Part shown: piece after piece, positions 5,308-20,485 of the stretch
How the letters are laid out: each line of letters opens with the position of its first letter
Position numbering within the stretch: position 1 is the stretch's first letter
NCBI GenBank assembly: GCA_963752915.1
Contig: CAVVZZ010000002.1
Coordinates: forward strand, 129,092 to 193,091
Length of the DNA: 64,000 nucleotides
Reading direction: 5' to 3'
Source: Ignavibacteriota bacterium
GTDB lineage: Bacteria > Bacteroidota > Ignavibacteria > UBA10030 > UBA6906
Made by a program: the position numbers and the translations under genes
The notes under the pieces: generated by a model
Told to the model about the DNA's origin: nothing
The model's database searches: none
What the model saw: the letters and a program-made list of their open reading frames with translations, nothing else

Positions 5308-5778
5308 TTATGTCGGCACCACGGGGACACGCGGGAGCCGTCCCGTGAGCTTGCGGAAACCCCGGTGCCAGGAATGGGGAAAGACGTCCTTCGCGAGAAA
5401 CATCAGGAGGCACTCTCCGTGCGTCTCAGACATCTGGTGATCATGGCAGAACTGGATGGCCTCCTGCGACTCGGCGCCCTGCTGCATCCAGATGTTCGTG
5501 ATGCCGGAGGCAAACGCATCTTTCACCACCGATGCCGATTCTGCGGGCGGGACAACAACCACGATACCGTCCACCTTCCCTTTGAGATCGCTGACAGACC
5601 GCGCCATGGAGATTCCGTCGATTACTCCCCCCTGGCGATTCACCGGAATTGCAGTGTAGTGGTGCTTTGTGAGCTCGCGGTATACGCTTGCGCCAAATTC
5701 CTTGCCGCTCCGGGAGACGCCGACGACAGCCAGCCGTCGCAGTCCAAGGAACCGTGCGATGGTCTCACCCTTTTCCAT
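5308..5778 (-). CDS. CoA-binding domain protein (YccU/YneT-like)
   Basis: RLAVVGVSRSGKEFG Rossmann-like N-terminus and IWMQQG motif typical of the CoA_binding_2 family. 3-nt gap to MFS and 8 nt to hypD. Confidence 0.7.
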   Translation of the reverse strand: MEKGETIARFLGLRRLAVVGVSRSGKEFGASVYRELTKHHYTAIPVNRQGGVIDGISMARSVSDLKGKVDGIVVVVPPAESASVVKDAFASGITNIWMQQGAESQEAIQFCHDHQMSETHGECLLMFLAKDVFPHSWHRGFRKLTGRLPRVPVVPT

Positions 5779-15065: not shown

Positions 15066-15310
15066 AGAAAGTCAGTGGATTAACCAATGTGCAATCGGCA
15101 TGCCACAGAAATTCGCAGATCCAGAGGACAATTGGCGGCAGGACTGGGTGAGCCTCGATCTCCTTTTCACAAATAGGAATTTTCGGCCGTTGCGAATGTC
15201 AGCAGTAACGACTCGGAAAGATCGTTGGGAGATCCAGTGTCTCGATGGAAGATGCTTGGAAGAGCAGCGGAAGCGTACGGCCGGGTCGACCGGCCAGAGC
15301 ATCACACGAC

Positions 15311-15976
15311 TCAGATCGCAGGGTTCGACGGCCGTGATTGCTGGACCAGCCATTGACACCATTCCTCCATCCCGGCGTTCGTCAGAGCGGAGGTCTCGAA
15401 GATCGTGAGATGGGGATTGATCGAGAGAGCGTTCTTCCGGAGAACCTCCGGTCGGGCATTGATATATGGAACGAGGTCGATCTTGTTGATGAGAAGCACG
15501 CCCGCATTCCGGAACATCGCGGGGTACTTCAAGGGCTTGTCATCCCCTTCGGTCGTGCTCGCGACCACGACCTTCACATTCTCGCCCAGGTCATAGTTCG
15601 CCGGGCAGACAAGGTTTCCGACGTTTTCGATCACGAGGAGATCAAGCTCGGAAAGCGGGATCGCTGCCAGTGCCTCGCGGACCAGGTTCGCTTCAAGGTG
15701 ACACCCCCCACGTGTTACGATTTGCACCGCAGGGATGCCGTAGCGTTCGATGCGCCGTGCATCGATGTCGGTTTGCACATCGCCCTCGACGACGGCAAGA
15801 CGGACCTGCCCCTTGAGAAGCTCGATCGTCTTCTCCAGGATGGTGGTCTTCCCTGCCCCCGGAGAGCTTACCATATTAATGACGTACACGCCGTTCTCCG
15901 TGAACAGCGTCCTGTTCCGGAGCGCGACTTCATCATTCTTCTCCAGGACTTTTCGTTCGATCGTAAGGACACTCAT
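15311..15976 (-). CDS. hypB: hydrogenase nickel-incorporation GTPase HypB
   Basis: P-loop SPGAGKTT, CH motif, ENVGNLVCP (G-domain with metal-binding Cys). Confidence 0.9.
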   Translation of the reverse strand: MSVLTIERKVLEKNDEVALRNRTLFTENGVYVINMVSSPGAGKTTILEKTIELLKGQVRLAVVEGDVQTDIDARRIERYGIPAVQIVTRGGCHLEANLVREALAAIPLSELDLLVIENVGNLVCPANYDLGENVKVVVASTTEGDDKPLKYPAMFRNAGVLLINKIDLVPYINARPEVLRKNALSINPHLTIFETSALTNAGMEEWCQWLVQQSRPSNPAI

Positions 15977-16347
15977 GTGACACCCTCTTCCGCATCGTCC
16001 AGTTCAACTTCAAGAACGCGCATTTCCGTGCCGCCCGTGATCTCCCCTTCAGTACTCCCGCAGTGCGGGCACAGCATCATGCCATCGGCCGGAGTGGAGG
16101 TGGCACCGCAGGACCGGCAGCGTATCGTAAATGGAACCGTTTCGATGGCGAGGCGGGCACGGGTGAATGGAGACTCCGCGACGATGGCTTCAAAACAAAA
16201 CTCCAACGAATCGGCCACGATCCCTGCCTGCACGCCGACGACGACCTTGACCGTCCGGACGAGCGACCGCTCTTTCTGCGGGACATACCGCTCGACGATG
16301 GAAAGAATATTCTCGGCAATGGAAAGCTCATGCACGGAATTGCTCAC
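15973..16347 (-). CDS. hypA: hydrogenase nickel-insertion protein HypA
   Basis: MHELS N-terminal motif and C-terminal CxxC...CxxC zinc site. ATGA overlap with hypB. Confidence 0.85.
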   Translation of the reverse strand: MSNSVHELSIAENILSIVERYVPQKERSLVRTVKVVVGVQAGIVADSLEFCFEAIVAESPFTRARLAIETVPFTIRCRSCGATSTPADGMMLCPHCGSTEGEITGGTEMRVLEVELDDAEEGVT

Positions 16348-16820
16348 CGTTCCTTTCCGTTCTCCTCCGGCGGCTGCCAGTCGATCCCATACCAGAGCAC
16401 GTACCCGTCGCCGGCGTTGTCTTCGTCAAGGCTGACGTAGGTGTCCCCGCTCAACCACTGCCAGAAATTGGATTCGGTGACCTTGCCTTCGCCGAAGCGA
16501 TCCGTCAGATAGGACAGCAACGATGTGGTATTGTCGCGCCCGCGCGTCATGATCACGATCCCGGAGAATGCACCGTTGTTGAACTCGAATTCGCAGTCCT
16601 CCAGATCCGCCTTCCCAAGACTGTCGACCCGCACCTTCACCTGATCCGCCCGTTCATCCAACTCCGATGGTGAGAACGAACCCGTGCGCTCTATGCGCAG
16701 ATACGGCGTTCCCCAGGGATATCCCGGGAAATCCGGTTTCGTTTGACTGCCGGCTGAGCACGTCAGACCCAGGACAACGATCAGAATCCGCGTAACCATG
16801 GAAGCTCGGGGAAACGCCAT
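16344..16820 (-). CDS. secreted/lipoprotein-like hypothetical protein, first gene of the hyp-hox transcription unit
   Basis: Signal-peptide-like N-terminus (ILIVVLGLTCSAGSQ). 4-nt overlap with the hypA start. No family recognised. Confidence 0.5.
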   Translation of the reverse strand: MAFPRASMVTRILIVVLGLTCSAGSQTKPDFPGYPWGTPYLRIERTGSFSPSELDERADQVKVRVDSLGKADLEDCEFEFNNGAFSGIVIMTRGRDNTTSLLSYLTDRFGEGKVTESNFWQWLSGDTYVSLDEDNAGDGYVLWYGIDWQPPEENGKER

Positions 16821-16902
16821 GGTACGGTGCCGCCTATCCGAACCGCAGGAATATTTTCATCTCCCTCTCGCGGAATTACCCGGAACAAGCACGTTGTTGA
16901 TC

Positions 16903-16954
16903 ATTGTAGGGAACCCCGTCCTGAATTGCAATTGGGCCAAAGCATCTCTATAAT
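16903..16954. promoter_or_regulatory. back-to-back divergent sigma70-type promoters sharing one palindromic -35 (AATTGCAATT): TTGCAA-N17-TATAAT toward glnD (+) and TTGCAA-N17-TACAAT toward the hyp/hox unit (-)
   Basis: Plus strand: TTGCAA 16926-16931, 17-nt spacer, TATAAT 16949-16954, about 33 nt before the glnD ATG. Minus strand: the same hexamer read in reverse, 17-nt spacer, TACAAT (plus ATTGTA 16903-16908). Confidence 0.55.
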
Positions 16955-16986
16955 TCCAACAGGCCAAAATTCCCATACCACTATCC

Positions 16987-19647
16987 ATGTCGACGACTGA
17001 CAAAGCTTCTGCAGCGTTCAAGTCGCATCTGGACGCTGCGCGCGACGAGAACATCAGGGCTTTCCGTGCCGACCGCGACGGCATCGCCCTCTGCACCTCC
17101 ATGACGCAGTCCATGGACCGGGCACTGGCTGAAGCGCATGCGCTTCTCCCCTCGTCCGACGGTGAGCGGATTGCGATTCTCGCGCTCGGGGGCTATGGAC
17201 GCAACGAGCTGTTCCCCCATTCCGACGTCGATGTCATGATTCTTGTCCCCGAAGGGGAGAAAGGTTCTGGCTCGGGGTCCGTCGCAAAGGAATTTCTCCA
17301 CCATCTCTGGAACGCGGGGCTCACTGTCGGGCACAGTGTCCGGACCATCGAGGAGGCGCTCATGCAGTACGGCGCCGCGATCGATGCCTGGATTTCGATG
17401 CTGGAATGCCGGCAGATCTGCGGGAACACGGCGCTCTACGACGGTCTTCGTGATGCGATTCGGAAGAAGATGCGCGCCTCCGATAAGCACTGGTTCATCG
17501 CTTCAACCCTCGAAGAAGCCAATGCACGGCATTCCCGCTACGGGAGCTCCGTGAAACTCCTGGAACCGAACGTCAAGAAGAGTGCTGGGGGCCTGCGCGA
17601 CCTGCAAACAGTCTACTGGTTGTACCGGGGATGCGAAGAGGGCTATCTGGACTTTCCGTCGCCCTCGAAACCGGCGACCGTGACGTTCTTGGACAGGCTG
17701 CACGAGGATGGGGTTCTGAATGACGATACACACCAGTCCGCTGTCGCCGCGCTCGCGTTTCTCTTTCGCGTCCGCGGGGCGATCCACAGCGATCGCGATA
17801 CGCCGAACGAAACCCTCGAGTATGCGCTCCAGCGAAGCGTTGCTGAACAACTCGGCTACAACGAGGAAGGCGGGCTGCGCTCCGTGGAAGTCTTTATGCG
17901 CGACTACTACCGTCACGCCCGTACCGTCCATAGCCTGTTCCACAGACTCGGGGGCAGGTTTCATGAACAGTTGCTCCCCCCTCGACGGATCTGGAACCGC
18001 GGCAAGAAAGCGGGCAGCGCCTTTCGTCTGCGGGAGGACAAACTCGTTCTCGACGATCCATCAACGCCGCTGGCCTCTGCCGACCAGGTGCTCGAAGCGT
18101 TCGAACTCGCCGCGGGAAACGGGGCTGAGATTGACACGATCCTGCGAAGCGCGATCGAACACGCCTCCACACTGATCACCCCGGAAACAGGCGCAACACA
18201 AACAGGCGCCGCAACGCTCAGGAAGATCTTTCTCTCTTCCCGGGTCGGCCTGACACTCCGGGCCATGAATGACACCGGCATTCTCGGACGACTCGTCCCG
18301 GAGTTCGGCGACCTCATCGCCTTCTTCCAGCACAACGTCTACCACTACTACACCGCGGACGAACACACGCTGATCGCGCTGGCGAATGCGGAGGCGCTCC
18401 GCGACTCCCAGGGATTTCTCCACGAAGTCTTCCGGACGCTGCGCCACCGGGAATTGCTCTATCTCGCGACCTTCCTCCACGACATTGCAAAACCACTCGG
18501 GGTCTCCGATCACGAGATTACCGGCGTGCCGATTGCGAAGAGCGTCGTGACACGCATGGGCTTCGCCGAGCTCGCCGACGATGTCGGATTTCTCGTCCGG
18601 CACCATCTGGCCATGGAACAGATCGCGTTCCGTCGGAACATCAACGACCCGGCGACGATCCGTGAGTTCGCGGGGAAGTTCGACAATCCGGCATTGCTGG
18701 AGTATCTCTACCTGCTGACGTTCGCGGACCTTTCCGCGGTCAACCCCAGCGTCTGGACCGAATGGAAAGCGCTGATGCTTCAGGAGCTGTATCAGCGGAC
18801 GTCGGAAGTCCTCCTTCGGAACCTGAAGGGGGAGGAAGTGGACCGGATGCACTCCGCGCGAAAGGAGGAAAAGAAGCTCGAGATTGTGCGGGAACTGCGT
18901 TCGGAATTCCCTGAAGCAAACATCATGAAACATCTGGACGGTATCCCGAATGCCGCGTACACCTCGGTGTTCTCCCCCGGCGAGATCGGCAGGCATCTCC
19001 GGCTTGGGACACTGCGCGAAGGGGTCGACCTCCACTTCGAACACGGCGAGGGATGGACCGAAGTGACGATCATCGCACCCGACGCTCCCGGCGCGCTTTC
19101 GAAATTCTGCGCGGTCCTCGCAGCCAACGACGCCTCCATCTTCACCGCCGATATCTTTACCCGGGACGATGGAATTATCTTCGACCGCTTTCGCGTCCAC
19201 GACATCTCTTCAGGAGGAGTGCTCACGCAGAAGAGCTGCACGAAGATTAAGGAAGACGTCCGGAACGTCCTGACCGGGGCACTCGAAATTGATCAGCTGT
19301 TCCTCGAGCATCATCGGAAATGGAAACGGCGGCCGAAAAAGCCGGAGAATCCAAATATCCGGACGGATGTCCAGTTCGAGGATTCGCCCTCGTTCACGAT
19401 CATCGACGTGTATGCCCCCGACCGGGTGGGGTTCCTGTACCGGGTGACCGAAGCGATATCGCGCGCCGGGCTGGATATCTTCTTCGCGAAAATTGCAACC
19501 CGGGTTGACGGTATCGTGGATGCCTTCTATGTCCGGGAGCGCGCCACCGGTCTTCCCGTCACCGATCCGACGAGAAAGAATGACGTCACGCGTGGGATCA
19601 TGTCCGCCCTGCAAAGCATGGCCCTCAGGGAATTGACGGGAGAATAA
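16987..19647 (+). CDS. glnD: [protein-PII] uridylyltransferase/uridylyl-removing enzyme GlnD
   Basis: N-terminal nucleotidyltransferase (GGYGRNELFPHSDVDV), HD domain (H..HD..K), two C-terminal ACT domains. 886 aa. Confidence 0.85.
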   Translation: MSTTDKASAAFKSHLDAARDENIRAFRADRDGIALCTSMTQSMDRALAEAHALLPSSDGERIAILALGGYGRNELFPHSDVDVMILVPEGEKGSGSGSVAKEFLHHLWNAGLTVGHSVRTIEEALMQYGAAIDAWISMLECRQICGNTALYDGLRDAIRKKMRASDKHWFIASTLEEANARHSRYGSSVKLLEPNVKKSAGGLRDLQTVYWLYRGCEEGYLDFPSPSKPATVTFLDRLHEDGVLNDDTHQSAVAALAFLFRVRGAIHSDRDTPNETLEYALQRSVAEQLGYNEEGGLRSVEVFMRDYYRHARTVHSLFHRLGGRFHEQLLPPRRIWNRGKKAGSAFRLREDKLVLDDPSTPLASADQVLEAFELAAGNGAEIDTILRSAIEHASTLITPETGATQTGAATLRKIFLSSRVGLTLRAMNDTGILGRLVPEFGDLIAFFQHNVYHYYTADEHTLIALANAEALRDSQGFLHEVFRTLRHRELLYLATFLHDIAKPLGVSDHEITGVPIAKSVVTRMGFAELADDVGFLVRHHLAMEQIAFRRNINDPATIREFAGKFDNPALLEYLYLLTFADLSAVNPSVWTEWKALMLQELYQRTSEVLLRNLKGEEVDRMHSARKEEKKLEIVRELRSEFPEANIMKHLDGIPNAAYTSVFSPGEIGRHLRLGTLREGVDLHFEHGEGWTEVTIIAPDAPGALSKFCAVLAANDASIFTADIFTRDDGIIFDRFRVHDISSGGVLTQKSCTKIKEDVRNVLTGALEIDQLFLEHHRKWKRRPKKPENPNIRTDVQFEDSPSFTIIDVYAPDRVGFLYRVTEAISRAGLDIFFAKIATRVDGIVDAFYVRERATGLPVTDPTRKNDVTRGIMSALQSMALRELTGE

Positions 19648-19650
19648 TTC

Positions 19651-20485
19651 ATGACCAGCGATCGCCCTCTCGTGACTCCCGACCAGCGCGTCAGGCCCAT
19701 CGGCGTGTTTGACAGCGGCATCGGGGGCCTGACGGTTGTCCGGGCCCTGAGTGAGCGGCTTCCCCATGAGAACATCGTCTACTTTGGAGACACGGCACGA
19801 GTTCCGTACGGCCCGAAATCTCCGGAGGTCGTGCGCGAATATGCCGCGGACGACGTCGCCCTGTTGCTGCGTTCACGAGATCAAGATGGTCGTTGTGGCC
19901 TGCAACACCGTTTCCGCGGTCGCTCTCGATGTTGTCCAGAGACATGCCCGCGTCCCGGTTGTCGGCGTTATCGTCCCCGGCGCCGAAGCAGCCGTGCGAG
20001 TGACGAAGAAGAAACGGATCGGTGTGATCGGGACGTATGCAACGATCAACAGCAATTCCTATACGAATGCCCTGCGTCAATTGGACCCGGACGTTGAAGT
20101 GTTTTCACAGCCCTGTCCGCTTTTCGTTCCCCTCGCGGAAGAAGGGTGGATGGACCATCCGGTGACGCAAATGATCGCCCGGGAATACCTTTTTCCGTTG
20201 ACACTTCACAAGATCGACACCCTCATCATGGGTTGCACGCACTACCCGGTGCTGCGTGAGGCGATCGCAGCCGTGGTTGGGCCGTCGGTCATGCTCGTCG
20301 ACTCAGGCGCTGCCACCGCCGAAGAAGTGGTCCGCACCCTCGAGGAGAAGAACCTGGTGAACCCAAGCAAACAACGCCCCAACCTTCAATTCTTTGTCAG
20401 CGATATTCCCGCAAAGTTCACCGAAGTCGGAGAACGCTTCCTCGGCCATACCCTTGGAAAGGTCAGGAAGATCGCGTTCGACTAG
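19651..20485 (+). CDS. murI: glutamate racemase MurI; apparent 1-bp insertion frameshift near 19870-19873
   Basis: N-terminal [13 protein letters not shown]...[11 protein letters not shown] in frame 1 (ORF 19651..20097). Remainder (VVACNTVSA...GCTHYP) in the +1 frame (ORF 19751..20485). Removing one base gives a contiguous [16 protein letters not shown]. Confidence 0.75.

Follow-up and report, generated by a model that had tools for sequence, protein, structure and literature searches.

The window, by which we mean the whole 64-kb stretch of DNA that was analysed, carries a 166-bp intergenic region (16821-16986) from which genes lead away on both sides, sp158, hypA, hypB and the hox genes on the minus strand to the left, and glnD and murI on the plus strand to the right (Table 1). 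The region holds a perfect palindrome, AATTGCAATT, that occurs once in the window, and its core hexamer TTGCAA, being its own reverse complement, can be read in either direction as a -35 element. Read rightward, it forms TTGCAA-N17-TATAAT (10 of 12 consensus matches), and read leftward TTGCAA-N17-TACAAT (9 of 12). A consensus scan of positions 16000-18000 returned two promoter-like sites, both of them at the palindrome. The two -10 elements stand 40 bp apart, and the starts, which would lie near 16961 on the plus strand and 16896 on the minus strand, are predicted to be about 65 bp apart. With opposite strands, outward firing, non-overlapping predicted transcripts and a divergent gene on each flank, the arrangement is that of a back-to-back divergent pair.

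The original prediction described the length of the intergenic region, the self-complementary hexamer and the two 17-nt spacers as they are found here. Its distances were close: from TATAAT to the glnD ATG, which is the first in-frame start, we counted 32 nt, where about 33 nt had been given, and the figure of about 75 nt for the leftward gene agrees with the distance from the predicted start site (~76 nt) and not with that from TACAAT to the ATG (82 nt).

Table 1. Features in and around the glnD-sp158 intergenic region (positions in the window)
Feature	Position	Strand	Basis or remark
Conserved block ~60-105 nt upstream of the predicted sigma-54 promoter	15163..15210	-	conservation
Predicted sigma-54 -24/-12 promoter upstream of hoxE, perfect	15090..15105	-	conserved in L001-L004
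hypB	15311..15976	-	
hypA	15973..16347	-	
sp158, 158-aa protein with N-terminal signal peptide, first leftward gene	16344..16820	-	lineage-restricted
Predicted leftward transcription start	16895..16898	-	A residues 5-8 nt past the -10; inferred from sequence
Conserved block spanning both promoters	16902..16954	.	52 core columns, 16903-16954
Leftward promoter, putative -10 TACAAT	16903..16908	-	N17 after the -35; consensus scan
Palindrome, 10 bp, perfect	16924..16933	.	invariant in 7/7 lineages
Putative common -35 hexamer TTGCAA, equal to its own reverse complement	16926..16931	.	would be used by both promoters
glnD promoter, putative -10 TATAAT	16949..16954	+	N17 after the -35; consensus scan
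Predicted glnD transcription start	16958..16961	+	A residues 4-7 nt past the -10; inferred from sequence
glnD, [protein-PII] uridylyltransferase	16987..19647	+	TIGR01693, 574 bits (cut-off 519); Pfam GlnD_UR_UTase, HD, two ACT
murI, glutamate racemase	19651..20485	+	starts 3 nt after glnD

Genes on either side of the intergenic region

The first gene to the left had been taken for one of the Hyp proteins, and its product is in fact a signal-peptide protein without a family match in Pfam or NCBIfam. A search of 5.8 billion proteins returned 8 homologues of sp158, every one from this clade. Its AlphaFold model is moderate (pLDDT 66), with residues 57-148 modelled reasonably, and a Foldseek comparison of the model with the PDB gave no match at E <= 0.001. 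A C-terminal motif, SLDED..GDGYVLWYG..WQ, is invariant, and sp158 always stands first, ahead of hypA-hypB; the protein may have a periplasmic role tied to nickel or hydrogenase. At two related loci, L007 and L010 (~5330-5735, minus strand), sp158 is replaced by a small winged-helix (MarR-like) regulator gene between hypA and glnD. Since the stop of sp158 overlaps the start of hypA by 4 nt, and hypA in turn overlaps hypB, sp158-hypA-hypB looks like one unit; hypA and hypB are genes for nickel insertion.

After hypB comes a gap of 245 nt, and then hoxE, hoxF, hoxU, hoxY, hoxH, the gene for a maturation protease, and hypF. Upstream of hoxE, the predicted sigma-54 promoter TGGCATGCCGATTGCA is the sole exact match to TGGCAY-N5-TTGCW in the window, and the conserved block further upstream (..TGATGAgttTTGCAACG..N..aTTCCcAttTGTGAAAAG) could be a candidate site for an activator (enhancer-binding protein) or for IHF. 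Judging from these sequence elements, hoxEFUYH, the bidirectional NiFe hydrogenase operon, is probably sigma-54-dependent in this clade, and its promoter is presumably activator-dependent. Because hox has this promoter of its own, the leftward promoter at the palindrome would directly serve sp158-hypA-hypB, and not the whole hydrogenase unit. The single hyp/hox unit of the original prediction thus has to be divided, as a conserved and perfect sigma-54 promoter separates hypB from hoxE. A sigma-54 reading (TGGCAC-N5-TTGCA, or GG-N10-GC) was also tried for the TTGCAA of the palindrome and was rejected, as neither strand of 16821-16986 contains TGG-N9-TGC, and neither has a GG 10 nt upstream.

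To the right, the TIGR01693 and Pfam matches bear out the identity of glnD that had been assigned from the translation, and murI, separated from it by so short a distance, is probably co-transcribed. In the window, a 1-nt insertion near 19872 breaks murI into two frames (CTGCGTTCACGAG, where L001 and L002, whose murI is unbroken and codes for 279 aa, have CTGCG-TCACGAG). Either the assembly is wrong at this point, or a gene that is normally essential has become a pseudogene. An Rfam scan of 16300-17300 yielded nothing at the gathering score, the best hit being a chance match to PVT1_3, a lncRNA family (18.6 bits, where the cut-off is 45), and the predicted fold of the glnD leader is not unusual (z = -0.13).

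Promoter type of the lineage and conservation of the palindrome

Promoters of the Bacteroidia type have TTTG at -33 and TAnnTTTG at -7. As this consensus is unusual, the use of classical promoters in the present lineage was checked independently of annotation, by counting matches to TTG[AC]hh-N(k)-TATwwT, with k from 10 to 25, at unique non-glnD sites over related loci totalling 1.37 Mb (L001-L150). A greedy ORF map of the window, in which the hypA/hypB/sp158 region was called wrongly, was left out of the statistics. The resulting spacer spectrum contains 52 sites at k = 17, against 5-12 at each other k. The N17 sites are located 1-90 nt upstream of long ORFs, and the lineage consensus derived from them is TTGAnn / TATATT; TTGCAA also occurs as the -35 element of an unrelated N17 promoter in L020. 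The sharp peak at N17 indicates that promoters in this lineage are of the classical -35/-10 kind, the spacer being held strictly at 17 nt. The organisms are filed under or beside Bacteroidota; they differ from the Bacteroidia in this sharp N17 TTGnnn/TATwwT signal, and TAnnTTTG occurs on neither strand of 16821-16986.

Two further features of promoters in these genomes came to light. An ATG placed 5-8 nt past the -10 element, a spacing that suggests leaderless mRNAs, is found in many genes, among them sp158 (in L028 and L149) and glnD (in several genomes). In addition, the glnD promoters of the wider family (L005-L077) have a spacer conserved far above that of other promoters, TTGAAT-CTCC-N6-CAATCGG-TATATT (e.g., L005, 5911-5939), and in L077 (3434 and 5928) a second gene, a 732-aa ORF, has the same spacer pattern as the glnD promoter. 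The conserved spacer may be a candidate regulator site.

The conservation of the palindrome was compared in seven independent lineages, a small sample consisting of the window, L002, L001, L003, L004, L147 and L149, in all of which sp158 directly adjoins glnD. The nearest genomes are MAGs of uncultured 'Ignavibacteriota/Bacteroidota', whose GlnD proteins are 87% (L002), 80% (L001), 67% (L003) and 60% (L004) identical to that of the window, and among the seven lineages identity over the first 450 GlnD residues drops to 51-54%; an exact-sequence look-up of the GlnD of the window found no match on record. Loss of the palindrome from near relatives that share the gene order, which the original prediction had named as evidence against itself, was looked for in these seven lineages, and the palindrome was kept throughout. 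Every lineage with sp158 directly beside glnD carries it, both N17 spacers are likewise kept in 7/7, and in L149 the palindrome is extended to 12 bp (GAATTGCAATTC). Over the 52-bp core a mean of 5.9/7 sequences are identical per column, compared with 3.3-3.9/7 in the 30-nt flanks, and the spacer middles have diverged as the flanks have.

Both -10 elements begin with TA in all seven lineages, and the final T is present in 7/7 on the left and 6/7 on the right. The left -10 occurs as TACAAT, TACCAT or TACACT, all weaker than the lineage consensus TATATT, and the right -10 as TATAAT, TATTAT, TATACT or TATATA, the last of these, which is without the final T, in L149. There are two exceptions outside the seven, namely L082, a variant of the L001 species from a metagenome, in which the left -10 is TTCCAT and the key A at position 2 is lost, and L148, a truncated contig with GACAAT as left -10. 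Depending on the lineage, the start of sp158 lies between ~5 nt (L149, in which the leftward transcript is probably leaderless) and 82 nt from the left -10, and such variability fits a promoter and not a leader-RNA element. Conservation also runs 3-5 nt past the hexamer on either side (CTGAA-TTGCAA-TTG), for which a -35 element alone does not account, so that a bound protein is possible.

In outgroups, whose GlnD is 40-45% identical over those 450 residues, the glnD promoter is TTGAAT-N17-TATATT. Those with hyp/hox synteny have a second, leftward-facing promoter with its own -35 (TTGCAC or TTGCGC, N17, TATATT), which precedes a small inserted membrane-protein gene, and in them sp158 has a separate N17 promoter of its own. 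The two -35 hexamers, TTGCAC and TTGAAT, are 3 nt apart in L033 and L072 (GTGCAA-TCA-TTGAAT), and the distance is ~36 nt in L028 and L032. Since they are separate in these genomes, at either distance, the common hexamer marks the point of closest packing in a continuum. The back-to-back partner of the glnD promoter varies between lineages and includes unrelated genes in the outgroups, which argues against a dedicated glnD-hydrogenase switch.

Elsewhere in the lineage, -35 hexamers abut (CGGCAA|TTGGAA) or are 1 nt apart (ATGCAA-A-TTGAAT), with real divergent genes alongside. Tight pairs of this kind, with -35s abutting or 1-3 nt apart and a junction of the form ..CAA|TTG.., were seen in L008 (11179-11185), L069 (11383-11395), L013 (10224-10231) and L033 (1656-1670). 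The genes that face away from each other at these pairs are a radical-SAM-like and an epimerase-like gene, a deformylase-like and a methyltransferase-like gene, and glnD and the small membrane-protein gene. Once orthologues are collapsed, tight back-to-back pairs (offsets 0-10) amount to ~5 loci, and the excess seen before collapsing is partly made up of orthologous copies; the pairs are recurrent, and they are not statistically enriched.

Probable and less likely readings of the palindrome

The alternative that survives best, though unlikely, is that the glnD promoter alone works, and that the left block (ATTGTAgggAAC) together with the flanks of the palindrome is a regulator-binding or upstream element of glnD centred at about -50 to -60, sp158-hypAB being transcribed weakly or from elsewhere. 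The right promoter is indeed the nearer of the two to the consensus, the left -10 is the more variable and is broken in L082, and the unusually conserved glnD spacers of the wider family hint at extra protein contacts. However, in 7/7 lineages the spacer between the hexamer and a left TAnnnT is exactly 17 nt long, no further promoter-like site lies between the left block and sp158, and the outgroups have an unmistakable leftward TTGCAC-N17-TATATT at the equivalent position. The left block, moreover, is not A/T-rich, unlike an UP element.

Also unlikely, and next in order, is that AATTGCAATT acts chiefly as an operator for a dimeric transcription factor, which would sit on the -35 region and switch both units, the promoter role being secondary or coexisting. 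This would account for the perfect 10-bp dyad, for its extension to 12 bp in L149, and for the invariance that reaches past the hexamer to CTGAATTGCAATTG in 6/7 lineages. Yet any promoter pair with a common -35 necessarily forms such a dyad, and TTGCAA serves as -35 at the unrelated N17 promoter of L020 as well. Near-copies with at most 2 mismatches number 27 in the window against 19 +/- 4 expected, which is not above chance and so gives no evidence of a regulon, and those other than the palindrome itself are all coding; 80 genome loci contain one extra copy, in L048. No regulator gene is conserved beside the locus.

The compact arrangement might, thirdly, be an architecture under selection, a reading that we consider improbable. 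Common or tightly packed -35s, which several unrelated loci show at offsets 0, 6, 7 and 9, would then force polymerases to bind one at a time or would couple the firing of the two promoters through supercoiling, so that expression of GlnD and of the nickel-insertion/secreted-protein unit would be reciprocal or would have linked noise, and a dimeric factor on the palindrome could set the direction. Weakest of all, and very improbable indeed, is a functionless chance resemblance in A/T-richer intergenic DNA: although the 25 promoter-like matches in the whole window do not exceed the 21.7 +/- 4.6 expected from first-order Markov simulations, which means that a lone consensus match says little, a divergent pair with an identical -35 hexamer arose in 0/300 simulated windows (-35 overlap of any kind in 2% of them), and the retention of the block in seven lineages despite diverging flanks effectively refutes chance.

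The locus quite probably contains, as its sequence and conservation suggest, two primary-sigma promoters placed back to back, with one palindromic TTGCAA acting as the -35 of both. This reading, which is in essence that of the original prediction, remains the best one, given that seven lineages conserve it and that promoters of this type are employed in the lineage.

Comparison with known divergent promoters and regulatory meaning

Back-to-back and overlapping divergent promoters were reportedly arranged in classes by Beck and Warren in 1988. Among sigma-70 promoters, ilvY/ilvC and fepA/fes have been named as back-to-back/overlapping divergent examples (PMC5175336). The present pair resembles these in its opposite strands, short intergenic region and interpenetrating upstream regions, by which polymerase exclusion or supercoiling effects become possible. 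It differs from them in that the overlap is one whole palindromic -35 with equal 17-nt spacers, and in that a near-symmetric 52-bp unit is conserved across an uncultured Ignavibacteria-like clade. Bidirectional promoters, as described by Warman et al. (Grainger), have a common -10 element and start sites 7-25 bp apart, with a mode of 18 bp (bioRxiv 10.1101/2020.01.31.928960; PMC12825309). As in those promoters, the symmetry of an element allows polymerase to bind in either orientation, one binding event excluding the other. In contrast to them, it is the -35 that is common here, with the -10s 40 bp and the predicted starts ~65 bp apart, and the pair therefore falls outside their definition. 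Phrase searches of the literature for shared or overlapping -35 elements, which are a weak instrument, found no description of a fully shared -35, and a literature search found no paper on Ignavibacteria promoters.

If two promoters do share the hexamer, the rightward one would drive glnD and probably murI, and the leftward one would drive sp158-hypA-hypB, with possible read-through into hox. The footprint of sigma-70 polymerase extends roughly from -55 to +20. It is a reasonable inference that two holoenzymes are sterically excluded from occupying the hexamer at once, since both sigma region 4 domains would need the major groove of the same 6 bp, and since each footprint would cover the -35 and the spacer of the other promoter. 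As for its origin, the pair most likely descends from back-to-back promoters whose -35s were still separate, as they are in the outgroups, and which then became compacted, and a dedicated switch between H2 and nitrogen metabolism is less likely than this.

Cross-talk between the two promoters, if there is any, would take the form of competition at high occupancy, or of mutual stimulation via transcription-driven negative supercoiling. In bidirectional promoters with a shared -10, basal activity is too low for polymerases to compete, and competition appears only once one direction is strongly activated (PMC12825309), and back-to-back promoters can also stimulate each other via transcription-driven supercoiling (PMC5175336). 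Regulatory coupling of H2 metabolism and nitrogen sensing, which the original prediction had raised, is a speculation that the outgroup data do not favour. The arrangement is a compact form of a familiar divergent-promoter organisation, and it establishes neither a new mechanism nor a link between H2 and nitrogen.

The locus offers a clean and conserved natural case of two putative promoters on one -35 hexamer, and its 52 bp could be adopted as a minimal bidirectional part, or used to weigh competition between polymerases against coupling by supercoiling. More broadly, the sequence evidence indicates that Ignavibacteria-like members of the Bacteroidota use classical TTGnnn-N17-TATwwT promoters, and not those of the Bacteroidia type, which helps the annotation of promoters in uncultured genomes.
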